37,518 nt of DNA from an uncultured Gammaproteobacteria bacterium (lineage in GTDB: Bacteria; Patescibacteriota; Microgenomatia; UBA8517): NCBI GenBank assembly GCA_964423565.1, contig CAYREZ010000001.1:976-38493 (forward strand), read 5' to 3'. The position numbers and the translations under genes were made by a program. The notes beneath the pieces were generated by a model. The model ran no database searches. It saw only the letters and a program-made list of their open reading frames with translations, and was not told the DNA's origin. Shown here piece by piece: positions 3,441 through 35,710 of the stretch; position 1 is the first letter of the stretch; every line of letters begins with the position of its first letter.

Positions 3441-4613
3441 CTACTTTATATAAGTTGAAATAATAACATCCGCATTAACTTCAGAGTATTTCTTTTCTGC
3501 AAATTTTCTCGCATTATCTGACAATTTTTTTAGTTTATCAGGATTTTTATAAAAATACTCAGCCGACTCTTTAATCTTTTCTGGAGTCACGTCGATTAAC
3601 TTTCCCACGCTTTGGTCAATCGCCTCCGGAATTGCGCCTCTATTAGATCCGATTACCGGAGTACCACACGCCAAAGATTCCAAAATCACTCTTCCGAAAC
3701 CTTCCTCATGTACCGAAGGAACTATTAAAACATCCGCCGCATTATAGTACTTAGGCAACTCATCATTATCTATTTTTCCTAAGTATTGAACATTGGAAAT
3801 TGGAAATCCATCGACTTCGCTCGGGACGGTGAGTTTGTCGAACCGTTGGAAATTGGAAATTGTATTTTCCATCGGTCCTGTTCCAATTATCGTCAAAGTT
3901 ATGTTTTTATCCCAAATTTTAGCCACTTCCAAAAGTTCATTAATACCCTTTTCTAGCACTAACCTCCCCACAAATAAAACAATAAATTTATCTTCCCAGC
4001 CAATCTGTTTTTTAACTTGTCTCTTGTTACTTGTTGCCTTAAACTTATCTAGATCCACCCAATAAGTAAACTCTTGAATTTTAATGTTATCTATCCCCAG
4101 ACTTTTAATTTCTTCAGCTGATTGTTTGGATAATACCAAAATCTTATCAGACTTATTAAAAATCCATTTGGCAAAGATGTGATATAAACCTGCTTTTGGA
4201 AAATTATATATCGAGTGCGTCGTAGTTATAACTTTTTTAGAGAAAACTTTGCTCCAAAAAACCGCTGCAAATCCGGCAATAAGTCCATGACTGTGTATAA
4301 CAGAAATATTTTTTTCTTTAATCAATAAAACTGGTATAAACAGAAAAAGTCCCGGTATTAAGTACATAAATTCCAAAATAGGATTGTTAACAAGATTATA
4401 AAAAACGCCACCGAACCACGGAATTCTATAAATAGTCAAATTACCATTCTTTTCAATAAACGGTGCTGAAGCTTTTGTCGTGATAGGTTTATAAGTTAAT
4501 ACATCAACCTTCCAACCTTTTTTCAAAAGGACTTTTGTCAGATCATCAAAATGCGTTTCGATTCCGCCAATATTGGGCGAATAAGCAATAGTAGTAAGAA
4601 GTACTTCTTTCAT
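3441..4613 (-). CDS. GT4-family (GT-B fold) glycosyltransferase carrying a translated repeat element
   Basis: 390-aa ORF. C-terminal EEGFGRVILESLACGTPVIGS is the E-x7-E region of Glycos_transf_1. The linker ...ISNFQRFDKLTVPSEVDGFPISNVQYLG is encoded by the repeat at 3793-3860. Confidence 0.85.
   Translation of the reverse strand: MKEVLLTTIAYSPNIGGIETHFDDLTKVLLKKGWKVDVLTYKPITTKASAPFIEKNGNLTIYRIPWFGGVFYNLVNNPILEFMYLIPGLFLFIPVLLIKEKNISVIHSHGLIAGFAAVFWSKVFSKKVITTTHSIYNFPKAGLYHIFAKWIFNKSDKILVLSKQSAEEIKSLGIDNIKIQEFTYWVDLDKFKATSNKRQVKKQIGWEDKFIVLFVGRLVLEKGINELLEVAKIWDKNITLTIIGTGPMENTISNFQRFDKLTVPSEVDGFPISNVQYLGKIDNDELPKYYNAADVLIVPSVHEEGFGRVILESLACGTPVIGSNRGAIPEAIDQSVGKLIDVTPEKIKESAEYFYKNPDKLKKLSDNARKFAEKKYSEVNADVIISTYIK
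3793..3860 (+). repeat. Mini-element copy 1: 15-bp direct repeat, 38-nt core, 15-bp direct repeat
   Basis: TTGGAAATTGGAAAT (3793-3807), then CCATCGACTTCGCTCGGGACGGTGAGTTTGTCGAACCG, then TTGGAAATTGGAAAT (3846-3860). Its first 38 nt match the reverse complement of 20239-20276 at 36/38 positions. The overall architecture is shared with 20212-20276. Confidence 0.75.
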
Positions 4614-10034: not shown

Positions 10035-11212
10035 GATATCCAATATCCCCTAACAAAAAGGGAAGTTGCTATACCTAAGCATATAAAAAGTAAAAGATAA
10101 ACACTACCTCTTACGATAACCGACTGCTTACTTAGGTATAGAGATAAAATAATAAACGCAGGAAAAAGAATAACTACATATCTGGGAAGGGATGAAAAAC
10201 TGCCTGAAAGTGTAGGAATGAGAAATGCCACAAGTAAATAAACTGCATAACTAAGTCTAATTCTGACTTTATTTAGTTTTCCAACAGCTGCCAATAACCC
10301 AAACACAACTAACAAACTAAAAATTACGGCTGTAAGAAATTCTAACCATGTAGTAAATACTACTGGAAAATATGAGTAATTGATATTCGGTAATATTTTA
10401 AAAATATATCTGTAAAATACTTGGGGTAGCAATATTAAATTTGAACTTCTTTGCTGGCCGTAAATAGCTACATTATGTAAAAAATCCAAAGCATCACCTG
10501 TATTTGTTTTGATATAAAACATGTACATTAATAACGTCATGGGAATTAACAAAATGGCACATAAACTTTTCACCAAATAGAGATTCCCAGACTTAATTTT
10601 TTTATTTTTTTGTAGTACATATAACTCCGCTAAAAGTGCTGGAAAAAGAGCGATTCCTACTAATCTGGTTATTGCTGCGAGTCCGCCCAGAGTTCCAACA
10701 AATAACCATTGTTCTCTTCGTGCGAAATAAAAAGTCCAAACTGACAATGCGAAAAACAAACTTTCACTATATAAACTTCCAAAATAAAAAGATGTCGGAA
10801 ATAATAAGATCAGTAAAAGTGTAGTTCTGACAATATTATCGGAATAATCTAATCTTACAAGTCTTATTAGTCCTATTAGTCCTATAAAAAAAGAGAGATT
10901 AGATATAATTAGACCTGAAAACGCATACCCCACGAACGCACTACCGAATAAGTTAGCAAGACTTCTGATTAATACCGGATATAAGGGAAAGAAGAAATAA
11001 GTCAGCGGTTTATACCCGTCTCTTGCAATTGCTAAGAAATGCTCTCCGTCAAAGTTTGCCCATGACCAGAGATATGGATATAACAAATAATTTACCCTTC
11101 CTCCTCCCAAAAAATTCACCTGAAGGGGTACTACCGATATCGCAATTAGAAGAATAATAAAAAGAAGTAATCTCCATGTTAAATAATAAACTATAAGTTC
11201 TTTAAATCGCAT
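10031..11212 (-). CDS. GT-C fold membrane mannosyltransferase-like protein (PIG-V / Mannosyl_trans2-like)
   Basis: Polytopic membrane protein. The N-terminal loop motif WANFDGEHFLAIARDGYKPLTYFFFPLYP matches the W-D-x-x-x-[FY]-x-x-IA-x-x-GY...FFPL signature of the PIG-V/GPI-mannosyltransferase-2 family. The first ATG is at 11212 (the track start at 11227 is TTG). Confidence 0.6.
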   Translation of the reverse strand: MRFKELIVYYLTWRLLLFIILLIAISVVPLQVNFLGGGRVNYLLYPYLWSWANFDGEHFLAIARDGYKPLTYFFFPLYPVLIRSLANLFGSAFVGYAFSGLIISNLSFFIGLIGLIRLVRLDYSDNIVRTTLLLILLFPTSFYFGSLYSESLFFALSVWTFYFARREQWLFVGTLGGLAAITRLVGIALFPALLAELYVLQKNKKIKSGNLYLVKSLCAILLIPMTLLMYMFYIKTNTGDALDFLHNVAIYGQQRSSNLILLPQVFYRYIFKILPNINYSYFPVVFTTWLEFLTAVIFSLLVVFGLLAAVGKLNKVRIRLSYAVYLLVAFLIPTLSGSFSSLPRYVVILFPAFIILSLYLSKQSVIVRGSVYLLLFICLGIATSLFVRGYWIS

Positions 11213-14180: not shown

Positions 14181-14201
14181 CAAGGAGAATCCTTTAAAGG
14201 T
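14181..14201 (+). repeat. REP-like 21-mer, copy 1 (upstream of transposase gene)
   Basis: CAAGGAGAATCCTTTAAAGGT. It can fold as AAGGA-GAA-TCCTT, or through the perfect palindrome CCTTTAAAGG. It is preceded by a second palindrome, CCTTGCAAGG (14176-14185). Confidence 0.8.
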
Positions 14202-14211
14202 AACATAAGTC

Positions 14212-14895
14212 GTGCCTAGTAGAAATGTAATTAAAATTTACATAGAAAACGGTTACTACCATATTTATAATCGCGGAGTTGAGAAACGAATAATCTTTAA
14301 GGATACACAGGATTATAAAGTTTTTTTAACATACCTTAAGGAATACCTCTCACCACCACCTAAACCGGAACATATAAAAACTATATTCATCTTACAAGGA
14401 GAATCCTTTAAAGGTATTAAAAGACAGCCAAAGAACTACTATAAAGAAATCGAACTTATTTCCTATTGCCTGATGCCAAACCACTTCCATCTGTTAATAA
14501 AACAGGTTTCAAAATATTCTATAGAAAAATTTATAAGATCTTTAGCTACGCGCTATTCAGTATTTTTCAATAAGAAATACAACAGAGTTGGTAGTTTATT
14601 CCAAGGTCCATATAAAGCTGTATTAATTTCAAGTGAAAATTATTTGCTACACTTGAGCAGGTATATACATCTTAACCCTTCGGAATATACTGACGATCTA
14701 ATTAACTCATATTCGTCATATGCAGCTTATTTAGGATTACGTAGAACAAATTGGGTTAATTCCGATATTGTTCTAAATTACTTTAATAAACCTGTTGTAA
14801 AAGATTTTATAAAAGTAAATACTTATAAGCGTTTTGTAGAAAAATATAAAAAGGATTCTAGAAAACTTCTAGGGAAATTAACTCTCGAAAATTAA
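14212..14895 (+). CDS. IS200-like Y1 (HUH) transposase / REP-associated tyrosine transposase (RAYT)-like protein
   Basis: 227-aa ORF with a GTG start. Contains YHIYNRGVEKRIIF, the HUH motif YCLMPNHFHLLIK, GSLFQGPYKAVLI, and the catalytic-Tyr region LHLSRYIHLNP. Confidence 0.8.
   Translation: MPSRNVIKIYIENGYYHIYNRGVEKRIIFKDTQDYKVFLTYLKEYLSPPPKPEHIKTIFILQGESFKGIKRQPKNYYKEIELISYCLMPNHFHLLIKQVSKYSIEKFIRSLATRYSVFFNKKYNRVGSLFQGPYKAVLISSENYLLHLSRYIHLNPSEYTDDLINSYSSYAAYLGLRRTNWVNSDIVLNYFNKPVVKDFIKVNTYKRFVEKYKKDSRKLLGKLTLEN
14389..14425 (+). repeat. REP-like repeat, copy 2 (37-nt extended form, inside the transposase CDS)
   Basis: AACTATATTCATCTTACAAGGAGAATCCTTTAAAGGT matches 14894-14930 at 34/37 positions. 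It is translated as ...TIFILQGESFKG... Confidence 0.8.
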
Positions 14896-14930
14896 CTATA
14901 TTCACCTCTCAAGGAGAATCCTTTAAAGGT
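14894..14930 (+). repeat. REP-like repeat, copy 3 (37-nt extended form, downstream of transposase gene)
   Basis: AACTATATTCACCTCTCAAGGAGAATCCTTTAAAGGT. Its start overlaps the transposase stop codon (14893-14895). Its last base overlaps the stop codon of the convergent GT2 gene (14930-14932). Confidence 0.8.
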
Positions 14931-17193: not shown

Positions 17194-18870
17194 TCAATTT
17201 GCTACGATCTGAAAATACTTATATCCATTTGTTCCATAAATTTCCTCGACAATATTTGACTCCTCCAATATTTCCTTATCAGTTCCTGCAAATAGCGCTC
17301 CCGGATATTTTACCCTATCTTCATCCCAATTAATCTTATTAAATTCAAACTTATCGAAATTTCTTACCGTTGAAAAATTATATGTATCCCGTTGTGTCAG
17401 CTCATGATTACCCTGAAACCTAGCCGGTGGATACTTAAGATAAAACAAAAATAATATATAAGGTTGATCATATCTATTACTAACGACTATTTTATTAAAT
17501 TTATCACCATTTTTCTCAACATAATCAACCAGCTCCTTTATCCCATATTGCGATGAGAAAGGATATTCTTTTGCCATATGAACCCAATACATATGCTCGT
17601 AGCGAGTGAAGTTCCAAATAACAAATAATCCAATAAACAAATAAACAAATGATTTGATGAATTTTGAAAATTGTTTGAACGCGTGTGAAGGAATTGATTA
17701 TATAGCAGATAAACCGGTGGCACTGATTATCGTAAGGGGGACTACCATATTTTGTGCACGGAGTGCATGCGGTGATTGAAAAGTAAGCGCCGCGCCTACG
17801 GGTGCGACAATCAACCACCATAAGATTAGAGTATAGGATTTAAAATACTGGGATAACGATTTAATTACAAAAATGATCCCACAGACAATAAATAGTATAT
17901 CAAATAAGTACATTTGCCCCGTTTCCGGCACTCGATTACGCTCTATGACATCTCCTGATAAAAAAAGAAATTCCCCGTTGTAATGCTTAACCCAGTTATT
18001 GGTAAAAGCCAAGCCATAATTTACCAATTTATTATGTATTGTTTTAGAAAATAAACCCTGAAAATTATTATGCTCACCCCTTTGTTCATTAGTCCTGGCG
18101 AGTGGCCCAGTATCTGCAAATAAGCCAACGCCTGCCATCCTCGATGTAATGTTTCCCTTTGTTAAATCTTTCGCCAACGGCATTAACGTAACCAATCCGA
18201 CTAGTGCCGCTAAAGCAAAATTTAGCAAATGTTTGCGAACATATTTAAAGTAAATAAGAAATAATCCGACTCCAATAAGGGGAGTAATTACGCGTGCAGA
18301 ATGATATGCGTATAAAGACAACGTAAAAACCAAAGAGCTTAAAAAAAGATATACTATATTGTTCAATCCTTTTAGGAAAAACCATAGACCTAATACGATA
18401 AAAAATGTCGCAACATTTACTTCCCATCCTCCACGCGAAAAATGTATATGCCAGGGGCTAATTGCAAGCAGAAAGCTTGCAATATGACCAGTGCCTAATT
18501 TCAAATCTCCAATTGCTAATTTCTTATTATCAAATAATTCGCCTACTAATAAATAAACCAGATAAATGGTTAAGAGCCCGAATAATGTCCCAGGAATTCT
18601 AACCGACCATGCATTTAACCCAATGAATTTTACAAAAGGTAAAACCATATAGAAATACAAACCAGGTTTATAATCGTTGAAAGATTGAAAGTGAATCGGC
18701 CAGGGATTACCATGCTCGTCTTTACCTGTTTCTAATAGTGAATAAGCGTTATAACCAATTGCAGCCTCGTCAGCATTTAAAGCAGGATAACTACCGAGTT
18801 TCCAGAACCTTAAAAATGCCGCCAATAAAATGATCAGTAGTAAAATATATTTATGATATTTATTTCCCAT
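17194..18870 (-). pseudogene. ArnT/PMT_2-like GT-C glycosyltransferase, paralogue A, interrupted by one in-frame TAA
   Basis: Track ORFs 17698..18870 (390 aa) and 17194..17640 (148 aa, TTG pseudo-start) are in the same frame. They are separated only by TAA (17700..17698) and 19 sense codons. The joined 558-codon frame aligns end to end with the intact paralogues (N-terminal DEAAIGYNAY, SPWHIHFSRG, C-terminal QPYILFLFYLKYPP). Confidence 0.65.
18461..18483. other. perfect 9-bp stem / 5-nt loop palindrome inside the paralogue A coding sequence
   Basis: Gene strand: ATTGCAAGC-TTTCT-GCTTGCAAT, encoding I-A-S-F-L-L-A-I. It is positionally homologous to the palindrome at 20189-20211. Confidence 0.8.
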
Positions 18871-20188
18871 GTTACATATAATGATATATCATACAGATGA
18901 CTATTTAATTTCTATAATACGAAAAGCAGTTTCACCATTCAAATATTTAATCTCATTTATTAAAGTGAATAATTTCGTATCGCTCGAATCTTGCGGCGGT
19001 ATTCGTACCGAATCGCCAATTATTAAAGATCCGCTATCACCGCGATTTAAAGACCAGTCTATGGGAACAAATTCAATATTATCAAGTTTATTGACATATC
19101 CAACATCGCCAATTAGACCGCTATCTACTAGCTTTGACTTTTTTTGATAAACGGCTGGCGGATATTTTTGGTAGAAAAGGAAATATATATAAGGTTGAGC
19201 AAATGATTGCTGGACTTTCACTGTAGTATAATTTTTTTGAATAGGAGTGACAATTTCGACCATCTGTTTATACCCATACTCCCAAAGTTTTGAGTTATGT
19301 TTCGAAAGATGAATAAAATAAGAATCGAGGTAATAGACAAGCGAACCAACAAACAAAATAGATATAAAACTAATAAACGAAAATTTCTTTAAGTTATTAC
19401 TTAAATTTTTATTAAACCCAAAAATATCAATAAGCCCAAAAGACGATAAAAATGTAAGGGGAATTACCATATTTAAAGACCTGATTGCATGTACTTGATC
19501 GCGGGATAATACTGCCGGAAGTGGTGCTAAAAGAAGCCATAACAAGATAAAATAAGTAAATTTATTCGACTTGCGGATGATAGAATTAAATCCGATAACA
19601 AGTAAAATTATATCTGATAGAAGTAGCATGCCATGATTAGGAGCAGAATGTCTTGGATTCTGCCAATCTCCTTCAAAGAACAAAAACCTACCCGAGAAGT
19701 GATTAAACCACCGACTCATTATTCCCCTTTTATAATTTAGGGGCTCGCTATGGAAAAGATAGTAATTTAAGCTACCAACTTTCTCATTCCCCTGATCTAA
19801 AAATGTCTGTAGGTATTCTTTAGTCCTAGGGTAGGAAAAAACATTGAAGACATTTAATCTTCCCGTTTGTCCAAAGTGAAAACTTATCAAAACTGGCAAA
19901 ACAATAATTAAACCTACTATCGTGGACTGTATCACAGTAACAAGGTTATTAGTAATAATTACTTTTGTTTCTCGCCAATAACCAACAATAAGGACAAAAA
20001 TAACAATTAATGTTGATAATTTAGCACCTTGGTAAGTAAGCACCGTCAGCGAAAAAAATACTGATGCAAGTATAAGGAATTTACTTTTATCCAACGCTTT
20101 GAGAAAAAAGTAAATTCCGAATAAAGTCAGAGTTAAAGCTAAATTAGCTTCCCAAGCTCCCCGGGAAAAATGGATATGCCCGGGATTA

Positions 20189-20211
20189 ATCGCGAGTAAT
20201 GAACTCGCGAT
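20189..20211. other. perfect 9-bp stem / 5-nt loop palindrome inside the paralogue B coding sequence
   Basis: Gene strand: ATCGCGAGT-TCATT-ACTCGCGAT, encoding I-A-S-S-L-L-A-I. It is unusually GC-rich for this sequence and directly abuts the repeat element at 20212-20276. Confidence 0.8.
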
Positions 20212-20276
20212 AATTTCCAATTTCAAACAGTCAGGCAAACCGACCCGAGCGAAGTCGAGGGATTTCCAATTTCCAA
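20212..20276 (-). repeat. Mini-element copy 2 (inverted relative to copy 1): direct repeat, 35-nt core, direct repeat
   Basis: Minus strand: TTGGAAATTGGAAAT, then CCCTCGACTTCGCTCGGGTCGGTTTGCCTGACTGT, then TTGAAATTGGAAATT. The core spans 20227-20261. It is 35 nt long, not a multiple of 3. Confidence 0.75.
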
Positions 20277-20632
20277 TATATTTTTTAATCTTATTTTTTT
20301 AACTATCAGATACATTAACCAGACAGCAATTACTCCCGCTATCGCACTAGGAAGTCTTACCGCAAATTCGGTTAATCCGAAGATTGCGATAAAAGGCACG
20401 GTGGTGTAAATATAAAAACCGGGTTTGTAATCCCCGAATGACTTAAAAATAACAGGTAGTAATTTACCGTACTCATCTCTTCCGGTTTTCAAAATAGAAT
20501 AGGCATTATATCCCAATGCCGCCTCATCCGGTGTTAAACTGGGCGGTAAACTCCCCAACTGCCATATTCTCAAAATTGCAGCTAATATAAGAATAGGAAA
20601 TATAGAATTATGAAATAAGAATTTTTTTATGT

Positions 20633-21277
20633 TCATACTTTAAACATAAACTTTTTTACAAATTTATTTACAGTCCCATGTTCGTCTCCAGTAACCACTG
20701 CGATTCCGCTTATTATCCCCTTGGCTATTGAAATTCCTTTTTGGTTATATTCCTTCTGAATTTTTTCTGCAGTTTTTTCATCCTTGAATCTAAGGAAGGT
20801 AAGATGTGGATGGTATTCAGTCATCACCTGAGGATAACCAAATGCTTTAATATATTCTCGTTGTCTGCCTGGGAATCTATTGGAATCTTTTAGTTCTATC
20901 CTATGTTTTTCACTGATATGACCTTCTCTTAAAGGATTAATAATTTTTAATACCTTTTTATGAATTGAATATAGCTGACTACCCTTCTTAAAATCTAATC
21001 CTACCCATCCCCGTTCTGAATAAAGTTTATTAAATTGTAATTCGAAAGGCGTTGTATTTTTTACAATACTTCTTAATAAACTGAAAAATTTCCTTTTATT
21101 TTTAGTAGGAAATTCGACTTTATAAATCGTGATATGAGCGAAATTTATTTTATTATCTATCTTAAAATAAATATCGCCTTTTGTAGAAACTTCATTTGCG
21201 AGCTGTTTAGCTAATTCAGATACCGATTTATTTGGTAATAAAATTATTCTGTAGGTAACAAACTTATCTTTTTTCAT
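20633..21277 (-). CDS. 2H-phosphoesterase superfamily protein (LigT / 2'-5' RNA ligase-like, cyclic phosphodiesterase-like)
   Basis: Two H-x-[TS]-x motifs are present: FAHITIYK and HPHLTFLRF. The ATG at 21277 (MKKDKFVTYRIILL...) is preferred over 21322. Overlaps with both flanking GT-C genes suggest translational coupling. Confidence 0.55.
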   Translation of the reverse strand: MKKDKFVTYRIILLPNKSVSELAKQLANEVSTKGDIYFKIDNKINFAHITIYKVEFPTKNKRKFFSLLRSIVKNTTPFELQFNKLYSERGWVGLDFKKGSQLYSIHKKVLKIINPLREGHISEKHRIELKDSNRFPGRQREYIKAFGYPQVMTEYHPHLTFLRFKDEKTAEKIQKEYNQKGISIAKGIISGIAVVTGDEHGTVNKFVKKFMFKV

Positions 21278-23003
21278 ATATTTCAAAGGCTGGTTTACCG
21301 TCCAGAAATTCAACATCTTCAAGTTTAGACCAACCGTTGGGCATATTTCCTGGGCTTGTTATTAATAAACACCTATTTTCACCAGCCAAACATTTAAACC
21401 TACTACCGTTCTCTAAAACAAAATCCTGCCATTCTTCTTCTGGGATATTCCAATCGTTAATAAAGTAAAATTTATCAAATCTATCTACCCAATACCAGTT
21501 TGATTGATTAAACCGAATTAGCGATGCATCTTTTTGGTATCTTGAAGGATTCCAAGGATAATTGACTAAAACGAAGATATGCGGTTCGCCGTACTTTTTT
21601 GTAAATATAATTCTGTCATAATCTTCATAATGCAGTTTCGCATAATCAACCGCCTGCTTATAGCCATACTGCCAACTCCATGAATAGTTTTTTCTATAGC
21701 TATTAAAATATTTTTTCCAATAATTTACCAAAGAAAAAGTTAAAACAGTTACATATATCAGTAAAAGAGCTAAAATCATAAACTTTCTTCTTCCGAGTTG
21801 TAACACTCGACTCAAACCCATTGCACTAATAACCATAGGCATGGGCAAAATAATTGATGCGCGAAGTACGTGTGGTGCTTCCCTAGTAAGAGAAGAGGGA
21901 ATAGTTGATAAAAAAAACCAAGATAAAATGAATACAGTTAGCCTATCTCTTCTTTTCAAGAGTGTGATAAAACCTAAAACCAAAAATGTCGCGTTAATTG
22001 TATATAGAACTCCAGCCCCCGGAACACTGAATTGATAATTTGATCCTCCTTCAAAAAATAAAAATTTAAAATTATAATGATCTAACCAATTACTGCCTAA
22101 GTGTCTTATAAAATAAGTGGGTCTGCTATAAACTAGCCTAGTTATTATATTAGGTAGCTGTGAATTTTGTCTGGATTCAATAATTTGTCCTACCGCCCCA
22201 CTATCAATTAGAGCAATCTTGGAGTATCTTGCTTGTCCAATAGGCTTAATTAGTTGATAAAACATCGGTATAAAAAATAGAAGAATAACGAACAAAGAAT
22301 AATAAAGTATGTGTTTTTGACTCCTATAAATTACTAGTATTTCTTTTCTATATAAAATTATTAGTACTACCATAAACAAAGGTATGAATATTCTCGCAGA
22401 ATTATAAGTCCAGACTGACAAACCTAATAATGTGGTGGATAGTAGCAAGTAACCAGCAACTTTTGGCTGCAAATGATTCGGAAAGTTAATAGATTGATTA
22501 ACAACTTTTAGAAAAAAATAAATTCCAGAAATAATGAATAATACGGCAAGATTTGCCTCGAATGCCGCACGGGATAAAAATAAACTCCAGGGCTCAACTG
22601 CGACAAGAAGTGCAGCCATTGTTGCAAGTAATTTTGGATCAGTTATTATTGGTTTGTTTTTACTACTGGGAAATAACTCAAGAACTAAAAGGTATGTAAA
22701 ATATCCTGATCCCACCCCTGCGAGTACGGAAGGTAGACGGACAGAAAATGTGTTTAATCCAAAAATTGCAATAGATACGACAGTAGTATAAATATAGACT
22801 GGCAATTTATAGTCACCAAAGGCTCTGAAAATACTCGGAAAAAGCCGATTCCATTCATCTCTGCCAGTTTTTAAAATTGAATACGCATTATAGCCGATAC
22901 TTGATTCGTCCCAGTTCAAAGACGGAGGATTACTGTCTACATAAATAATTCTTAAATATAATGCGATAGCTAGTATTAAAAATAGTACAATTTTATTTTT
23001 CAT
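21264..23003 (-). CDS. ArnT/PMT_2-like GT-C glycosyltransferase, paralogue C (intact)
   Basis: 579-aa polytopic protein. Contains N-terminal WDESSIGYNAYSILKTGRDEW, then EPWSLFLSRAAFEAN, and a C-terminal soluble domain (YGEPHIFVLVNYPWNP). Confidence 0.85.
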   Translation of the reverse strand: MKNKIVLFLILAIALYLRIIYVDSNPPSLNWDESSIGYNAYSILKTGRDEWNRLFPSIFRAFGDYKLPVYIYTTVVSIAIFGLNTFSVRLPSVLAGVGSGYFTYLLVLELFPSSKNKPIITDPKLLATMAALLVAVEPWSLFLSRAAFEANLAVLFIISGIYFFLKVVNQSINFPNHLQPKVAGYLLLSTTLLGLSVWTYNSARIFIPLFMVVLIILYRKEILVIYRSQKHILYYSLFVILLFFIPMFYQLIKPIGQARYSKIALIDSGAVGQIIESRQNSQLPNIITRLVYSRPTYFIRHLGSNWLDHYNFKFLFFEGGSNYQFSVPGAGVLYTINATFLVLGFITLLKRRDRLTVFILSWFFLSTIPSSLTREAPHVLRASIILPMPMVISAMGLSRVLQLGRRKFMILALLLIYVTVLTFSLVNYWKKYFNSYRKNYSWSWQYGYKQAVDYAKLHYEDYDRIIFTKKYGEPHIFVLVNYPWNPSRYQKDASLIRFNQSNWYWVDRFDKFYFINDWNIPEEEWQDFVLENGSRFKCLAGENRCLLITSPGNMPNGWSKLEDVEFLDGKPAFEIYEKR

Positions 23004-26353: not shown

Positions 26354-28051
26354 CTATTTAAGGGGGGTTTGTACAATATATATCGCAGGGTCACCATTTG
26401 GATAATAAATTACATGATCAGGTATTATATTCTTAAATTCTTCTGGTTTTCCTGCCATCACGATTCCTTCTTCTTTACCATATTTTAAAAGATCTATATC
26501 CCCGAAAACATAATTTTCGAGTTCCCATTTCGGCATTTGGTCGACCCATCCCAAACCAAGCTTTCGATAATTCCACTCCTTTGCATACTTTTGATAACTT
26601 GAGGGTTCCATACGGTTTGCAAAAGCTATAAAAATATTCGGTTCAGAAAGAGTTCTGCTCACAATAATTTGCTTACTTTGCGCATTCGTATTTAGCCACT
26701 GAGCGGCCTTTAAGCTCCCATAAAGCATATCTTTAGAAGATTTTTGAGGGGAAACCAAAAAATAATCTAATAGAAAATATATAAAAATTAAAGTAGATGC
26801 AAATATGTAGGAAACATATACTAACTTCTTATATTTAAAGTCTGCAATATAGTTAACAACTTGAAGCAAACCGAATGCAAGCAAAATTTGGATTGATGGC
26901 AGTTGAATTACTGCCCTATTAGCCGCATAACCCGGACCGAGTGATAAAGCGGCAGGAATTGGCGCAATAAAAAACCAAAATAATATTAACTTAAAAAGTT
27001 TATTAACTCGAGCTTTTGTAATAAATAGAAAAAACCCTAGCAACAGTGGCAGTTCGAACCAATACAAAACTCCCCTACCCGGAATCATGCCGTAGGTAGC
27101 TTCAGCAGGACCCTGAAAAAAATAGTACTGGGGTGAAAAGTAGGATACATAGTTGGCAGTAAAATGCCTTAAACCCATGACAAACTTATTAAAAAATAAC
27201 CTTCCGGTGAAAGGATCCATACCCATATTAATGGCTTTTATTCGCTCAGAGGATGCCTCCATAAGTGAAAGCTTGAATATGCTTACATCCAAAATGCGGG
27301 TTGATGATCCGGACATAAGAGTCCAAAAAAATGCAGCTGCAAAAATTAATGCAATAAATATACTGATCTTATGATATTTCCCGAAATTTCTAAAAACCTC
27401 TTTCCTGAAAATTACCAGCGCAAAAATAAAAACAAGCGGAGTAATTAATTTAGCGGAATGGTAGCTGAAAATGTTTAATCCCGCTAAAATTACCGAGTAC
27501 GTAAAATATTTTGGGTTATTTAACCCCTTAAGAAACAGATAAATTGCTAGTGGAAGAAAAAACGTTGTTAGGTTTGCCTCAAACGCTCCCCTGCTCATCA
27601 TTATGTGCCAGGGTGAAATCGCAAGTAGAAATGCTGCGACATATTCTATATTTCCAATTCCAATATTCTTTAATGCTTTTGAAGGTGTCTCACTTAACCC
27701 GAGATATTTCCCGTAGGATTTAGAAACTAATCGGGTTAACAGAAAAGTCACGTAAATCGCAAGAGTTCCCGACAGTGCGTTTGGTAGCCTGGTCGCGACT
27801 TTATTAAGTCCCAATAATCCAATAGATGGAATAGTAAGATACGCATATAACGGAGATTTGAAATCTCCTGCAGACTCTAGCGTCAAAGGAAAACTTTTTC
27901 CCCATTGATCTTTGCCTGTTTTTAAAAGTGAATAGGCATCATATCCGAACGAAGACTCGTCCGGTGTAAATCCGACAGGATACTTATCAAGAGATGTTAC
28001 ACGTAGAAGCAGTCCCAGTAATAAAATAACCGCAAGTAAATAGCGTTTCAT
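26354..28051 (-). CDS. ArnT/PMT_2-like GT-C glycosyltransferase, paralogue D (intact)
   Basis: 565 aa. Contains TPDESSFGYDAYSLLKTGKDQWG and SPWHIMMSRGAFEAN. The variable loop is ...KYLGLSETPSKALKNIGIGNIEY... Confidence 0.85.
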   Translation of the reverse strand: MKRYLLAVILLLGLLLRVTSLDKYPVGFTPDESSFGYDAYSLLKTGKDQWGKSFPLTLESAGDFKSPLYAYLTIPSIGLLGLNKVATRLPNALSGTLAIYVTFLLTRLVSKSYGKYLGLSETPSKALKNIGIGNIEYVAAFLLAISPWHIMMSRGAFEANLTTFFLPLAIYLFLKGLNNPKYFTYSVILAGLNIFSYHSAKLITPLVFIFALVIFRKEVFRNFGKYHKISIFIALIFAAAFFWTLMSGSSTRILDVSIFKLSLMEASSERIKAINMGMDPFTGRLFFNKFVMGLRHFTANYVSYFSPQYYFFQGPAEATYGMIPGRGVLYWFELPLLLGFFLFITKARVNKLFKLILFWFFIAPIPAALSLGPGYAANRAVIQLPSIQILLAFGLLQVVNYIADFKYKKLVYVSYIFASTLIFIYFLLDYFLVSPQKSSKDMLYGSLKAAQWLNTNAQSKQIIVSRTLSEPNIFIAFANRMEPSSYQKYAKEWNYRKLGLGWVDQMPKWELENYVFGDIDLLKYGKEEGIVMAGKPEEFKNIIPDHVIYYPNGDPAIYIVQTPLK

Positions 28052-28059
28052 AAGTTAAA

Positions 28060-29376
28060 TTATAACTTTGCCCTTATCATTTGTCGAAGATATAGTCGAT
28101 AAAAATAAATAAAGATAATAAAATTCACAAAACCTAATAGTCTCGGAGTAAGTCTGTCCTGATAGGCTAAAAAGGAAACTAAAATTGCTAATTTTGGCAC
28201 CCACCAGAAATTATAGAGGTTTAGAAGCGATATCAGTGAAACTGAAATATAAACCCAAATTAATTTTACGTGCTTTATGGTTAAAATTGTCAGTACCGGA
28301 AATAGCGGATAAAGATATCTCTCGTGCATGTTGGGAAGTAGCATAAAAGAAGAAAAAGCAGCGATTGTTAAAGTCCATATTAGTGAATTGTGACTGCTTT
28401 TTTTATACAATAAATACAGCGCGGGAAAATACGCTAGTGAAAATAAAATAAATCCCCAAGTTTTATACATTAAAGGCCCTAGATATTGTGTGTATGACCT
28501 TAAATGAATCGTTGCTATAGTTGCCCATATATTAAACGCGTTTGCTGTAATAAGGTGCTGTTGTTGCACATATACTTTATCGATATATAGTTTATACAAC
28601 CACGAATATGGTTCACCATGGGAAAAGGGTAGCGTAAAGATTCCGATCAGCATAAAAGAAATCAATATTGATCTTAATAGATTGAAAAAAGAGTATTTTT
28701 GTTTTAGTAAGTAAACCAAATATATAGGTAAGAATATTACCAAAGACAGTTTTATAAATAAGCACAAAGCTAGTGCGATGAGAGAAAATGTCAACCTCTT
28801 TTTTATTAGTAGATAAAACGAAAGCAGCGCGAAGAAATTAATTATAGAATCATATTGCCCCCAAACAGACGACGTATACCAAATAACCGGATTGTATAAA
28901 AAAACTACAAGTCCCAGTCTACTTACTATTTTAGCCCTATTCCCCTTTAATAAGATTCTTAAGTATTTATAAAGCAAATAAGCTATTCCAAAGTCAGCAA
29001 TAATACCCGGTAATTTAACCACTGCAGGATAAAGATTATGTTCAAAATATGTAATTATTCCGGAAGGAAATGCGGGTATTTTAATATTAATGAACCAAAA
29101 AAAATTGAAAATTGACTCAAATAATTTCCTACTAAAAGCAAAAATATAAATAGTTCCCGGAGGCTGGTTTGGCCATGTATAGCTCCAGATATTGGATTCA
29201 GGAGCATAAAATTTTTCCGGGCCATATTCAAAATAACGAATACCCCAATCTAAATGATTATTAACATCGGGATGCCAGACTATAAAAGAAAAGGCCAGTC
29301 TGAAAACAAAAGCCGCGATGATTAAAAAGACAATATTTCTTTGTTTACCTAAAAGTTTAATTATTAACTCCTGCAT
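28060..29376 (-). CDS. GT-C fold membrane glycosyltransferase-like protein (DUF2029/GT87- or Gpi18-like)
   Basis: 438-aa polytopic protein. The first extracytoplasmic loop is HPDVNNHLDWGIRYFEYGPEKFY...YTWPNQPPGTIYIFAF, the Y-x-Y-P-P-type loop of mannosyltransferase-like GT-C families. The specific family is uncertain. Confidence 0.5.
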   Translation of the reverse strand: MQELIIKLLGKQRNIVFLIIAAFVFRLAFSFIVWHPDVNNHLDWGIRYFEYGPEKFYAPESNIWSYTWPNQPPGTIYIFAFSRKLFESIFNFFWFINIKIPAFPSGIITYFEHNLYPAVVKLPGIIADFGIAYLLYKYLRILLKGNRAKIVSRLGLVVFLYNPVIWYTSSVWGQYDSIINFFALLSFYLLIKKRLTFSLIALALCLFIKLSLVIFLPIYLVYLLKQKYSFFNLLRSILISFMLIGIFTLPFSHGEPYSWLYKLYIDKVYVQQQHLITANAFNIWATIATIHLRSYTQYLGPLMYKTWGFILFSLAYFPALYLLYKKSSHNSLIWTLTIAAFSSFMLLPNMHERYLYPLFPVLTILTIKHVKLIWVYISVSLISLLNLYNFWWVPKLAILVSFLAYQDRLTPRLLGFVNFIIFIYFYRLYLRQMIRAKL

Positions 29377-31060
29377 TATTTGCTGTAAAAATATAAAATA
29401 TCGGAATATTGGTCGGTGAACTGATAACTTTTAAAAGCTTTAGATTGGAATTATTAAATATACCCGGGTTTGTAACATCTTTCTCGCCATTTGCTATGAC
29501 CAAGGTTCCCGGAGTTGCCAGATTTTCGATAGGCTTTGCTAACTCACCAAAATAATATTTGTCAGCCAAACTGAAACCATTCACGCCGTTAATAATGTTA
29601 TCTTCATACCTATCACCGCTAAATTGTTTTTGGAAAAGCCTCATATCGTATTGGGAGTAAAATAAAAAGCGAGGAAGCATTGGCTCATAGGTGCTGTCAA
29701 AAATCACCTTTTGATAATCATTTTCATTTTCATTAACATATGAAACCGCCTCCTCAAAGCCGTATTGAAAGAAACGCCAACTTTCATTTTTCCAAATGAC
29801 AAAATACCTGTGTATAAATCGGGTAATATCCAATACAGCAACAGTGATAAAAATCGCAACCAAAACCTTTTTCTTGTAGCCTTTTGTGCTTTCTAGCAGT
29901 ACTTTAAAGCCAATGCCGGAAAGTATTACCAAAGGTATTACCATCAATATTAACCGGGAAGCGTGGGTACCACCGTCTTTTGTTAATGCAGATGCAAGTG
30001 GTGATATCGCAAGAAATGAAAAAACCAGCAGATATTTTTCATTAGCTTTTTCTTTCGCATTTTTGTAAAAAAGAAACCACAAGCCAAGAAAGATAAGCAC
30101 TATATCAAAATGATACATCTGCCCGAACCCCTCAATACTCTGACGCATGTTTGGGTCGCCTTCTGTAAAAAGAAAGCTTACCGAGAATGACTTGACGTAG
30201 TTTTTCAATACGACTTCAGTAGCAATAGTTTTTCTGTTATAAAATACACGCGTAAGAAAAGATTCTGACCACCTTCGCCTCGCAACGACTTCGCCCATTA
30301 AAAAATCTTCCTGAATTGCACTTATATTGGAAAATCTTTGTGACGAAATCCCTTTATACGTAAAGATAATATAGGGTAGAAGCAGTAATAATCCCAATAT
30401 TACTAAAAGTATTAACTTAATAGGCTGATACCTAAATACTCGTTTACGATAAATTACAATTAAAGAAAGGGCAAAAAGTGGAGTAAATACCGTCGCGATT
30501 GCATACGAATAAAAACTCATGGCAAATAGAAAAGTGGAAATAAGTAAATATTTATACTCTTTAATCCCCTTCAAAAAAAACAGCGTTCCGCCAATTATAA
30601 AAGGAAGAATTATCCCGGCATCATTTGCCTGTCTGCTAAAGTTAATATGCCACGGCGAAAAAGCCAAAAAGATTGTTGTAATGAGTGCAAGTTTTTTGTC
30701 AAAAAGTTCTTTAACCAAAAAATAAAACAGGAGCAAACTTAATAAGCCCATTATAAGTGATGGGGGGCGGACTCCGTATGCGTTTAAACCGACAAGTTTC
30801 ACAAACGGGGCATCCAAATAAAGCTGCATGGGTAAACGATATTCAGAAAATGAGTGAAACATTATCGGATACCTATTACCAAAATAGTCTTTCCCGGTTG
30901 TTGCGATAGAGTACGCCTGAAGCCCGACGTCAATTTCATCTCCAAACAGTGAAATCGGTGTACTATCTATTTTCCAAACCCTGATAAAAATTCCTACTAA
31001 AAGTAAAAAAACGAATATAAACAGTCCTAATCTTGCTTTTAAAATTTTTGATAGTTCCAC
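29357..31060 (-). CDS. ArnT/PMT_2-like GT-C glycosyltransferase, paralogue E (intact)
   Basis: 567 aa. Contains FGDEIDVGLQAYSIATTGKDYFG and SPWHINFSRQAND. The variable loop is short (KELFDKKLALITT). Confidence 0.85.
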   Translation of the reverse strand: MELSKILKARLGLFIFVFLLLVGIFIRVWKIDSTPISLFGDEIDVGLQAYSIATTGKDYFGNRYPIMFHSFSEYRLPMQLYLDAPFVKLVGLNAYGVRPPSLIMGLLSLLLFYFLVKELFDKKLALITTIFLAFSPWHINFSRQANDAGIILPFIIGGTLFFLKGIKEYKYLLISTFLFAMSFYSYAIATVFTPLFALSLIVIYRKRVFRYQPIKLILLVILGLLLLLPYIIFTYKGISSQRFSNISAIQEDFLMGEVVARRRWSESFLTRVFYNRKTIATEVVLKNYVKSFSVSFLFTEGDPNMRQSIEGFGQMYHFDIVLIFLGLWFLFYKNAKEKANEKYLLVFSFLAISPLASALTKDGGTHASRLILMVIPLVILSGIGFKVLLESTKGYKKKVLVAIFITVAVLDITRFIHRYFVIWKNESWRFFQYGFEEAVSYVNENENDYQKVIFDSTYEPMLPRFLFYSQYDMRLFQKQFSGDRYEDNIINGVNGFSLADKYYFGELAKPIENLATPGTLVIANGEKDVTNPGIFNNSNLKLLKVISSPTNIPIFYIFTANNAGVNN

Positions 31061-33976: not shown

Positions 33977-35710
33977 TTAGATCGAAAAGAGATAGAAAGC
34001 CGGTTCTCCCGAGGGATAGGAAATTGCCTTTACTAATACTAGCCCTTCGGGTGTTTTCTGTGGATCCATTATCAAATTGCCATCGATTTCTCTTGCCGCG
34101 GCAATATACAAGCCGTCGTCTGATAATACTTGTGACAAATTTTCAATTCCTATATCCACCTCAGGCTGACCAAAGTAATATTTCTCGATATGCTCTAATT
34201 CTCCAAAACCTTTAACAAATTCCCTTGATGTTCCTTTTTGCCAAATAGTTGGATCGTACGGGTAATAAGAAGCTAAAAAAATTCGAGGGTCATCGTTTGC
34301 ATTCGATAGAATTATCTTATTGTAGCGATTCTGATTTTCCTTAACTGCTGTTACAAGTTCTTTGTAACCTGCATGCCACGACCGTTCCGAATACCACGGG
34401 TTATGAATCCAATAAGTATGGCTATAAATCCCGAATTGAAAAATCCAAATTCCGAAAAATAGAGAAATAAAAACATATTTATATTTAGCCGTGAATCTAA
34501 AAATTGTCTCTGTTAACCCGTATGCAATAACTAGAACTATTGGCGGAAGAATTAGAATTAAGCGGGTTGCATGTTTACCTCCATCCCGTGTAACGGCGGA
34601 TGGAAATATTCCTGCAATAATCCAAAATAGTAAAAGATATTTTATTTTCCTGTCTAGACTGGATGACGCAAGTAAAATAACTCCCAGTAATAAAGCGATC
34701 ATTTCGACTTTGTAAAACTGACCTAGTCCACTTATAGAATGCCGTAAATTCGGATCCCCTTCAATAAATAGAAAGCCTGTCGAGAATGATTGTAAATAAT
34801 TATCTAAAATTTTCTCTTGCCAAATAATATACTTGTTGTGCATTAGGCGGCTGCTAATTTTTTGCCCAATACCACCTCCATATCTTCTCCTCATTTGAGC
34901 ATCGTCGAGCCTTAATGTTTGTATTGCGCCTATTGTAGTCGGATCAGTGAATATACTGATATATTTAAATCGAAAGGCGGCCCCTTGAAAAAAATTTACA
35001 TATATCAACGGTAACCATAATAAACAAAGTATTGAAAAAGTTAATAGTTTTTGTTTTACACTCATATTTATCTTTTTTCTAAACAGGTAAAATAAATAAA
35101 CCATCAATAAAGGAGTAAAAAGTTTTGCAGTACTATAAGACCATGGAGTTAGTAAAAAAAATAATCCTGATATCCATATATACTTTCCATCCTTTACTCC
35201 CTTGAAGAAAAAATAAAACCCGCATAAATATAAAAGTAATAGTTGAGTTACTTCAAAAGCTGCCCGTGAATACTGTAAATGCCAGGGCGAAAAAGCTAAT
35301 ATAAATGCCGAAAAAAGTGCAAATACCTCAATCTTCTCTCTGCTTTGATTTTTCCAATACCCACCAATCTCTACTACCAATAAATACAATAAATATACTC
35401 CCAGAATTCCGAATATCGCGGCTGGAAGACGTAATCCCCACGGCGTAATTCCAAAGATAAATACGCTCGGAATGGATGAGTATATATACAATGGTGCTCG
35501 GAAATCAGCATAAGATTGGAAATGTAAGGGTAAGAAATTTCCGAAATAATCGCGGCCCGTATTAATAAAAGAGTAAGCCTGATACCCTACATCTAATTCA
35601 TCGGAAAAAAGTGATACCGGAACTTTATCTAATTTCCACAAACGGAGTACTGCTGCTGAAATTAGAATTAATACTAATAAAATATTTTTTGTAATTTTTG
35701 GCCTGACCAT
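33977..35710 (-). CDS. ArnT/PMT_2-like GT-C glycosyltransferase, paralogue F (intact)
   Basis: 577 aa. Contains FSDELDVGYQAYSFINTGRDYFG and SPWHLQYSRAAFEV, with a C-terminal soluble domain. Confidence 0.85.
   Translation of the reverse strand: MVRPKITKNILLVLILISAAVLRLWKLDKVPVSLFSDELDVGYQAYSFINTGRDYFGNFLPLHFQSYADFRAPLYIYSSIPSVFIFGITPWGLRLPAAIFGILGVYLLYLLVVEIGGYWKNQSREKIEVFALFSAFILAFSPWHLQYSRAAFEVTQLLLLYLCGFYFFFKGVKDGKYIWISGLFFLLTPWSYSTAKLFTPLLMVYLFYLFRKKINMSVKQKLLTFSILCLLWLPLIYVNFFQGAAFRFKYISIFTDPTTIGAIQTLRLDDAQMRRRYGGGIGQKISSRLMHNKYIIWQEKILDNYLQSFSTGFLFIEGDPNLRHSISGLGQFYKVEMIALLLGVILLASSSLDRKIKYLLLFWIIAGIFPSAVTRDGGKHATRLILILPPIVLVIAYGLTETIFRFTAKYKYVFISLFFGIWIFQFGIYSHTYWIHNPWYSERSWHAGYKELVTAVKENQNRYNKIILSNANDDPRIFLASYYPYDPTIWQKGTSREFVKGFGELEHIEKYYFGQPEVDIGIENLSQVLSDDGLYIAAAREIDGNLIMDPQKTPEGLVLVKAISYPSGEPAFYLFSI

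Follow-up and report, generated by a model that had tools for sequence, protein, structure and literature searches.

How can a perfect hairpin persist within the coding sequences of two genes whose proteins are 38% identical, if every base pair that the protein leaves free has been exchanged between the two? This question is raised by a stretch of 37,518 nucleotides from an uncultured bacterium of the Microgenomatia (assembly GCA_964423565.1, contig CAYREZ010000001.1, positions 976 to 38,493 of the forward strand), which is called the window hereafter. It carries six paralogues, A to F, of a PMT/PMT_2-like membrane glycosyltransferase (GT39, ArnT-like), and two of them, A (17194..18870) and B (18901..20636), both on the minus strand, contain the hairpins. 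An earlier reading made from the letters of the window, hereafter the sequence-only reading, took the exchanged pairs for compensatory synonymous changes that point to a constraint on a nucleic-acid structure. This core inference holds, now on independent homologues: the homologue alignment that it had proposed as a check gives a two-fold excess of complementary third-position pairs. We put the chance that the GT39 hairpin is a structure under selection, working as a stem-loop of the sense-strand mRNA, at about even, and selection in total, with models at the level of RNA and of DNA taken together, receives about two-thirds of our confidence. On what evidence does this rest, and what else could produce such a pattern?

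Hairpin A (18461..18483, minus strand) reads ATTGCAAGC-TTTCT-GCTTGCAAT over the codons IASFLLAI, and hairpin B (20189..20211, minus strand) reads ATCGCGAGT-TCATT-ACTCGCGAT over IASSLLAI. Both are perfect stems of 9 base pairs (bp) with loops of 5 nucleotides (nt), and their sequences and positions had been given exactly in the sequence-only reading. Six of the nine pairs are set by the peptide, since I/A/S(AGY) on one arm and L(CTN)/A/I on the other bring AT opposite AT, GC opposite GC and AG opposite CT through first and second codon positions. The remaining pairs, 3, 6 and 9, join third codon positions, and at all three of them B differs from A, which bears out the division of the pairs made at first sight. 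When codons are resampled according to the usage of the window, a control that had also been proposed, a perfect 9-bp stem is obtained with P = 0.0062 for the peptide of A and for that of B, that is, about 0.006 per peptide. The stem of B is made of codons that are rare in the window, as had been suspected: GCG stands at 17%, ATC at 14% and CTC at 5%. Folding of 43 nt as RNA gives -16.0 kcal/mol for A and -16.6 kcal/mol for B (z = -3.2 and -4.1), and in both the predicted structure is the hairpin; folding of 33 nt as DNA gives -9.3 and -9.9 kcal/mol (z = -5.1 and -5.4), with the complementary strand equally stable. Paralogue D carries a partial hairpin (27618..27640, minus strand; GTCGCAGCA-TTTCT-ACTTGCGAT) with five Watson-Crick and two G:U pairs followed by two mismatches, and by itself its fold is not significant (z = -0.9). 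At the corresponding site of paralogue C (22619..22597) the stem is interrupted, and paralogue E has no hairpin. For all three of these paralogues inspection agrees with what had been described. At 38% protein identity the third positions of A and B are presumably saturated; among hairpin-bearing homologues at 72% protein identity, 69% of the four-fold sites already differ. Three contigs of near-identical strains were recovered (L001, L002 and L113). Hairpin A is unchanged in all of them and hairpin B is unchanged in L001, and in L113 the 5' arm of B (ATCGGCAGT) has the dinucleotide CG in place of GC, which breaks the stem and turns Ala into Gly.

Could the two hairpins be a coincidence picked out after the fact? 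The whole window had been scanned, so that many coincidences could have been noticed, and six of the nine pairs come free from the peptide. To this the homologues give an answer, as they were chosen blind to third positions. Metagenomes were scanned with the pattern ATHGCNAGY-N6-CTNGCNATH-N3-CCNTGGCAY, in which the peptide and the codon families are fixed and the third positions are free, and 46 matches were reduced to 36 non-redundant sites, none of them from the organism of the window. At 21, 23 and 23 of these sites, respectively, the three free pairs are of the Watson-Crick type, which makes 67 of 108 cells where 33.6 are expected. The expectation from locus-specific codon usage is 10.3, 10.1 and 13.2, and that from independent columns is 12.3, 10.8 and 14.0 (permutation P = 6e-4, 5e-5 and 2.5e-4). 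Perfect stems number ten, nine of them distinct, where 1.04 would be expected (Poisson P = 1.6e-7), and the number rises to 18 of 36 if G:U is counted as a pair. In a count based on the structure, 34 cells have changed on both sides, compared with 10.2 in shuffles, and none of 500 shuffles is as high; controls in which the partner is slid along collapse. Third positions that are cognate to each other pair 21, 23 and 23 times; when non-cognate ones are combined, 6 to 15 pairs are obtained, and therefore heterogeneity of GC content is not the cause of the covariation. The test is not phylogeny-aware, and most sequence pairs in it are saturated at four-fold sites. Pairs lying between 90% protein identity and saturation are almost absent; a single one, L088 against L121, is informative, and it shows two double changes. 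With these numbers, chance followed by picking is hardly credible as an explanation.

A second sample was taken from the family at large. One genome per species was scanned with a profile of 40 orthologues, through patterns that lie far from the hairpin (GVGLFADxGP and SFND[YF]KPG), and the resulting 80 loci together with the window gave 208 non-redundant GT39 sites, each defined as the eight codons before xPW[H..]..SR. Pairs were counted in a fixed register and compared with resampling from the codon usage of each locus. Sites with at least 7 of 9 pairs number 13 where 2.6 are expected, those with at least 8 number six (0.48 expected), and those with all 9 number three (0.05 expected). Further perfect stems have other combinations of third positions, ATTGCAAGT/ACTTGCAAT in L003 and ATAGCTAGC/GCTAGCTAT in L041. 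The serine of codon 3 is written AGY in 29 of 53 sites, where 15.8 are expected.

Is such pairing then a general habit of peptides that happen to impose a half-made palindrome? At 802 other quasi-palindromes in which the peptide imposes six of nine pairs, third positions are paired in 32.0% of cases against 29.3% expected. Conserved peptides of this kind behave in the same way: QPSFYEGF has 18 of 54 cells paired (18 sites), EASFGYDAY 9 of 45 (15 sites), FKSFGDFK 9 of 36 (12 sites) and DYKPG[LF]YF 2 of 27 (9 sites), so that together they range from 7 to 33%, and among their sites, about 58 in all, roughly one stem is perfect. The hairpin site has 62% of its cells paired and 28% of its stems perfect (Fisher test against these controls, P = 2e-9 when cells are compared and 2e-4 when perfect stems are). 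In a scan along the gene alignment it is the sole peak in a consistent register; other peaks were rejected as low-complexity runs of A and T or as single palindromes counted repeatedly. Likewise, the pattern ATHGCNAGY-N5-RCTNGCDAT matches the GT39 site and no other in 128 loci comprising 1.36 Mb. Apart from this, a second palindrome encoded by the peptide was seen in two GT39 genes, those of L027 and L080, around alignment column 815: TTACTACAATGAT-ATAT-ATCATTGTAGTAA, of 13 bp over ITTMIYIIVVT, and GCTACAATGAT-ATAT-ATCATTGTAGC.

The kinds of pairs are informative as well as their number. In the sites of the blind scan, G-C and C-G pairs are found 32 times against 8.6 expected, and A-T pairs 35 times against 25; the excess of G-C is built from rare codons ending in G or C in both arms, as in B of the window. 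G:U is neutral (15 against 16.0 expected), A:C is found 5 times against 11.4 (P = 0.10), and the other mismatches number 21 against 46.9. When near-hairpins are chosen symmetrically, the ratio of G:U to A:C is 21:6, compared with 182:132 in generic stems with 8 of 9 pairs from the same open reading frames (P = 0.026). The codon AGC always stands opposite G, even where this requires ATG, which is the case for all four Met codons, and its C is never opposite A; AGT stands opposite A ten times and opposite G six times. The mismatch spectrum thus leans, to a modest degree, to a helix of the sense strand, most simply of mRNA, and on this ground we infer RNA rather than DNA as the folded molecule. 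Because G-C pairs are enriched, because G:U is neutral where other mismatches are halved, and because the matched controls show no such effect, selection on the stability of the fold is favoured over coincidence and over a generic mutational bias.

It is to be noted, however, that mutation by itself may bring the two arms of a hairpin into concert. A functionless quasi-palindrome might maintain itself: the peptide supplies six pairs, intra-strand template switching copies one arm onto the other, and a point change is then undone or carried over into the other arm, which mimics compensatory evolution. The I-A-S arm itself could plausibly have arisen in this manner, with the conserved L-A-I arm as the template from which its complement was copied; any sequence N-CTN-GCN-AT has a reverse complement that must encode Ile/Met-Ala-Ser/Arg. 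Template switching has been put forward for the same pattern of inverted repeats in Proteobacteria (Lavi et al., 2018; PMC5941160). In the loci studied here, perfect inverted repeats are over-represented in coding DNA generally, with ratios to synonymous shuffles of 1.24, 1.33, 1.69, 2.2 and 4.0 for arms of at least 7 up to at least 11 bp, so that longer arms show a larger excess. Moreover, this excess is specific to perfect stems, generic stems with 9 of 9 pairs being 1.82 times as frequent as expected and those with 8 of 9 only 1.14 times.

Several further observations weigh with this generic excess against selection for a function, and some of them speak for template switching. The 13 sites reaching at least 7 of 9 pairs make up about 6% of the 208. 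The signal is confined to peptides of the form xAS..LAx, for which the mean z score of the minimum free energy is -0.97 (29 sites), compared with -0.09 at the 174 others; the hairpin is thus no feature of the whole family, and other peptides are without the structure signal. The hairpin is sporadic and polyphyletic, as it is scattered over at least three classes of paralogues that diverged anciently (A-, B- and D-type), and it is absent where the peptide cannot seed a stem. It would be odd for a function to be required at roughly one in ten of the sites. Between close strain pairs the 23-mer has changed at 4 of 138 positions and its flanks at 33 of 2700, so that the hairpin changes at least as often as its surroundings; the changes seen among the available pairs are single transitions and one dinucleotide change, that of B in L113. 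The adjacent synonymous pair 10 is not recruited (9 of 36 paired) and the stem ends at 9 bp. The evidence for the strand is modest (P of about 0.03 to 0.1), with the DNA hairpin equally stable on both strands. In homologues lacking the hairpin, no alternative upstream partner of the 3' arm was found. Moreover, the site lies in a region rich in products of slippage, namely heptanucleotide arrays. Why, then, is template switching not preferred? The control quasi-palindromes with six imposed pairs, which come from the same genomes and partly from the same genes, show no drift towards pairing. The excess at the site consists of G-C pairs made from rare codons (the 32 against 8.6 given above), which an unbiased conversion of arms in an AT-rich genome would not yield. 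To obtain neutral G:U with halved A:C, a strand-specific correction would have to be assumed in addition, and the many stems with one or two mismatches indicate that correction is not much faster than mutation. For these reasons we regard the functionless quasi-palindrome as somewhat unlikely, though it is the foremost of the alternatives.

If the preferred reading of an mRNA stem-loop under selection is followed, what might the structure do? A subset of the GT39/PMT_2-like genes of Microgenomates, of the Woesebacteria-like kind, carries a hairpin with a 9-bp stem and a 5-nt loop over I-A-S-x-(L/M)-L-A-I, and selection on the stability of the folded strand would keep the three third-position pairs complementary, often by means of rare codons ending in G or C in both arms. 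The codons of the hairpin directly follow a variable loop of the protein and precede a conserved SPWH motif. Our guess is that the hairpin may act as a roadblock in cis on the mRNA after this loop, where it might cause a brief pause of the ribosome between the hypervariable loop and the next hydrophobic segment, or form a barrier to nucleases. Some other roles were considered and rejected. An intrinsic terminator would need a run of U after the stem, and the 3' flanks, TAGCCCCTGG in A and TAATCCCGGG in B, have none, as judged from the sequence. A signal for -1 frameshifting would need a slippery heptamer of the type X XXY YYZ at a distance of 5-9 nt, and the upstream sequences GGCACTGGTCAT (A) and TTGGAAATT (B) are not of this type; the sequence upstream of the hairpin is not conserved among homologues. 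A SECIS-like reading fails as well, since read-through of the TGA in B remains out of frame. A search of Rfam gave no match at the gathering threshold anywhere in the window.

The variable loop itself brings in another possibility. Upstream of the site the autocorrelation at period 7 is 0.342, compared with a baseline of about 0.27, and in the glycosylation loci as a whole (L001-L128 and the window) heptanucleotides are the dominant tandem repeat: 154 arrays have a period of 7, 23 of 8, 6 of 6 and 2 of 9, if arrays of at least 3.5 copies with at least 80% match are counted and low complexity is excluded, whereas a shuffle of triplet blocks gives none of period 7. Examples are found in the window at 3792-3807, 3846-3862 and 20212-20276, and also in L089, L003, L005, L028, L043 and L053. 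The arrays are intragenic and open in every frame, and thus encode repeats of seven residues, (TTGGAAA)n giving LEIGNWK, (TCACCAA)n SPITNHQ and (TTTTCAA)n FSIFNFQ. Their units vary between genomes, and paralogues within one genome have units in common. This suggests glycosyltransferases that are phase-variable or that diversify their loops. Our literature search found no paper on heptanucleotide arrays in glycosylation loci of Microgenomates. Of the units found in arrays 5' of hairpins in several loci, three common ones are one substitution away from a legitimate heptamer of the 5' arm (ATH GCN A), as ATTGGAA is from ATTGCAA, ATCACCA from ATCGCCA and ATCACGA from ATCGCGA; all three substitutions remove the GC of the Ala codon. 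Arrays might have been seeded by duplication of the arm, and this likeness may also be a coincidence or an over-fitting of ours.

Can the hairpin be a device of DNA rather than of RNA? As a hotspot of instability or recombination, it would stall replication at the 3' edge of an exposed loop and thereby promote slippage by 7 nt, small insertions and copy-choice between paralogues, and selection for diversification would keep it. The 70 nt that precede the site on its 5' side make up 1.7% of the sequence and hold 46 of the 382 arrays, an enrichment of about 7-fold, and the loop holds an array in 4 of 15 cases with hairpins of at least 7 of 9 pairs against 8 of 188 others (odds ratio 8.2, P = 0.007). 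Loops of paralogues share more 8-mers within a locus (5.1%) than between loci (1.7%; P = 0.0016), and the downstream control is equal in the two comparisons. Close relatives differ by GC-rich insertions in the loop, as L104 does from L124 and B of the window from B of L001 and L113, and the gene strand together with the GC skew would leave the sense-strand sequence exposed on the lagging-strand template. On the other hand, most loops bearing an array (11 of 15) have no hairpin and most hairpins have no array, and heptanucleotide arrays abound throughout the loci away from hairpins. No differences in copy number were seen in the near-identical pairs L089/L127, L003/L084, L040/L042 and L061/L097, which are few and represented by consensus assemblies. 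Besides, second-order selection for evolvability is weak, and the neutrality of G:T fits RNA better than DNA. A hotspot at the DNA level is therefore unlikely in our view. Still less likely, we think, is the fuller form of this idea, in which hairpin and heptamer arrays make up a module diversifying a variable, possibly surface-exposed loop through stalling of replication on single-stranded DNA: slippage by 7 nt would switch the frame on and off, and with small GC-rich insertions and copy-choice between tandem paralogues it would lead to variable surface glycosylation in small epibiotic bacteria.

As to the insertions, the loops of L104 and L124 deserve description. The two sequences are 92.5% identical downstream and differ 5' of the hairpin by a GC-rich insertion of roughly 25-30 nt (AATAAGCAAAGCTTGGCGCTTCGCGCTGAA), which sits in a degenerate array of heptamers, TTAACCA TTAACCA TCGATCA. 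This is the second case of a GC-rich insert in an array within the loop. The first is B of the window, whose variable loop (20212..20276, minus strand), directly 5' of the hairpin, had been called an element with direct repeats. Its parts are, in order, (TTGGAAA)2T (20276..20262), the GC-rich core CCCTCGACTTCGCTCGGGTCGGTTTGCCTGACTG (20261..20228) and TTTGAAATTGGAAATT (20227..20212), so that the stem of B begins directly where the second TTTGAAATTGGAAATT repeat ends, as had been noted. A second and better preserved copy lies at 3793..3862 on the plus strand, reading (TTGGAAA)2, TCCATCGACTTCGCTCGGGACGGTGAGTTTGTCGAACCG and (TTGGAAA)2TTG, antisense and in frame inside a GT4 glycosyltransferase gene (3441..4613, minus strand). 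The common plan is (TTGGAAA)2-3, a core of roughly 38 nt rich in GC, CCWTCGACTTCGCTCRGGAYGGTGAGYYYGTCGAACCR, and (TTGGAAA)2, and the core folds as two nested helices, TCGAC/GTCGA and GCTCR/YGAGY. A copy in L005 (about 10160-10250) is in sense orientation in a GT4-like gene and encodes LEIGNPSTSLRMVSPSNHWKLEI; one in L102 is shorter, has its core inverted and lies in a GT39 loop. Thus four copies are seen, three of them in frame, in the loops of three different glycosyltransferase genes and in either orientation. The 34-nt core allowing up to 3 mismatches matches B alone, and a shorter core is needed to find the other three. In L028, tandem units of roughly 50 nt with the same TCGACTTCGCTC core were observed.

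In the window, B is frameshifted by a net deficit of 4 nt within this insert. The insert is 4 nt longer in L001 and L113 (CTCGGGTCGGTTTGCC in the window, CTCGGAACGGTGAGTTTGCC at L001:3605-3650 and CTCGGGAAGGTCGGTTTGCC in L113), and that of L001 is translated in frame as LEIGNPSTSLGTVSLPDCLKLEI. B of the window may accordingly be a frameshifted variant or an assembly error, and the gene may be decaying in the lineage. It was also considered whether ribosomes hop over the insert, as the L-E-I codons 56 nt apart would restore the frame; this was rejected as the default reading, since the sister strains carry 4 nt more and L001 is read through, and since three of the four copies are in frame no translational bypass is needed. 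A variant bolder still than the diversifying module described above would have the mRNA hairpin stimulate re-phasing of the ribosome over out-of-frame arrays or inserts such as that of B. The association of element and hairpin that had been proposed stands in one part, as the element is a genuine repeated one; it fails in another, as most hairpin-bearing homologues are without the element and the insert is translated in frame in the sister strain.

Is the hairpin, after all, a target of a mobile element? The sequence-only reading had listed recognition by a single-strand nuclease or transposase of the HUH/Y1 type among the possible roles, and one might think of REP/RAYT or IS200/IS605 systems, or of the GC-rich element as the party that recognises the hairpin. 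A Y1_Tnp gene of the IS200-like kind is in fact present 3.6 kb away (14212..14895, 227 aa; region 14181..14930, plus strand), and the GC-rich element is real, inserts in glycosyltransferase genes and adjoins the hairpin in B and in L102. The Y1 gene has a motif of its own, CAAGGAGAATCCTTTAAAGGT, in three exact direct copies on the plus strand (14181-14201, 14395-14415 and 14910-14930) that bracket it and lie within it. The motif holds a hairpin, AAGGA-GAA-TCCTT, and a palindrome, CCTTTAAAGG, and has no further copies in the window; by its arrangement the unit looks like a REP/RAYT-like or IS200-type one. This motif, however, is unrelated to the GT39 hairpins, which are not dispersed but confined to one codon position in the 128 loci. 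Hairpin A is unlike B at three positions of the stem and in its loop, and stems vary from genome to genome, so that sequence-specific recognition would not be possible, and selection at the level of the host would not preserve a target of a transposon. As to the other copies of the element, no GT39-type hairpin is visible beside those at 3793-3862 and in L005, where the flanks were judged by eye. The HUH/Y1 role thus did not survive the comparison, and we consider it very improbable.

The surroundings of the hairpins are those of a cluster for surface glycosylation. The window is AT-rich with about 34% GC, nearly all its genes lie on the minus strand, and they include GT2 and GT4 enzymes, a methyltransferase and several large membrane proteins. 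Besides A and B, the GT39 paralogues C, D, E and F are located at 21264..23003, 26354..28051, 29357..31060 and 33977..35710, respectively; A shares 33-38% protein identity with each of the others. The nearest named relatives are proteins from metagenome-assembled genomes of Microgenomates/Woesebacteria, among which orthologues of A are 60-67% identical. A search of PDB sequences with the profile of the GT39 family gave no matches. Paralogue A is split in the window by an in-frame stop near 17700, whereas that of a sister strain is intact with 557 aa (P0002). Around 17660-17720 the in-frame TAA is accompanied by a patch of roughly 40 nt that cannot be aligned with the sister strain, although the two are elsewhere 99% identical; the translation is ...GLSAI*SIPSHAFKQFSKF... 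in the window and ...GLSAIIYWIKELRFSKF... in L001. A replacement, a small rearrangement or an artefact of assembly might account for the patch.

Why should a stem of nine base pairs in an uncultured bacterium be of concern? Conserved structures of nucleic acid inside bacterial coding sequences have seldom been demonstrated. Here, six fixed pairs and exactly three free, silent ones make a clean natural experiment, in which covariation, preference for G-C and tolerance of G:U can be read directly from metagenomes. If selection is the true cause, a further layer of regulation in cis or of genome dynamics would exist in the large tandem families of the GT39 type that have expanded in genomes of the candidate phyla radiation. 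If template switching is the true cause, the site would provide a well-quantified mutational drive that mimics compensation, and a warning for the discovery of RNAs by covariation in open reading frames. The dominance of heptanucleotides may even outweigh the hairpin in importance, for it raises the possibility of phase-variable surface chemistry in uncultured epibionts.

To which known systems, then, should the hairpin and its loop be compared? The inverted repeats explained by template switching (Lavi et al., 2018; PMC5941160) and the correction of quasi-palindromes (PMC7202029) are similar in that arms evolve in concert and the excess grows with arm length; the present site differs from them in an about 8-fold excess of perfect stems, compared with 1.6-1.8-fold for generic ones, in its richness in G-C and in the sparing of G:U. 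With regard to the loop, units of 7 nt inside coding sequences of enzymes for surface carbohydrates recall NeuO of Escherichia coli K1 (PMC13001214) and the simple sequence repeats of Haemophilus influenzae (PMC2651432), although the arrays here are short (3-6 units), numerous and genome-specific in the sequence of their units, and their copy number did not vary between the strains compared. The subterminal hairpins of REP/RAYT and IS200/IS605 systems are alike in being short, perhaps in acting on single-stranded DNA, and in having a Y1_Tnp gene nearby; unlike them, the GT39 hairpin is neither dispersed, nor conserved in sequence within the genome, nor extragenic. As for the composite element, Rickettsia palindromic elements insert in frame into genes, and GC clusters and "byps" occur in yeast mitochondria. 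A short, GC-rich, hairpin-forming insert in frame in an AT-rich genome resembles these, but its core is much shorter (about 38 nt) and flanked by heptamers, and only four copies were seen. The closest parallel to the hairpin itself is offered by stem-loops embedded in coding sequences, such as the cre of picornaviruses, a conserved cis-acting stem-loop that is recognised by synonymous covariation. In both, a short and stable stem-loop lies in an open reading frame, compensation is synonymous, G:U is tolerated and the sequence is free to change; what sets the present one apart is that it belongs to a cellular family of bacterial genes and to a minority of its orthologues and paralogues, that it has no Rfam family, and that six of its nine pairs arise incidentally from the peptide. 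The GT39 hairpin is another case of a stem-loop in coding sequence kept through synonymous covariation, an unusually patchy one and one with a credible mutational rival.

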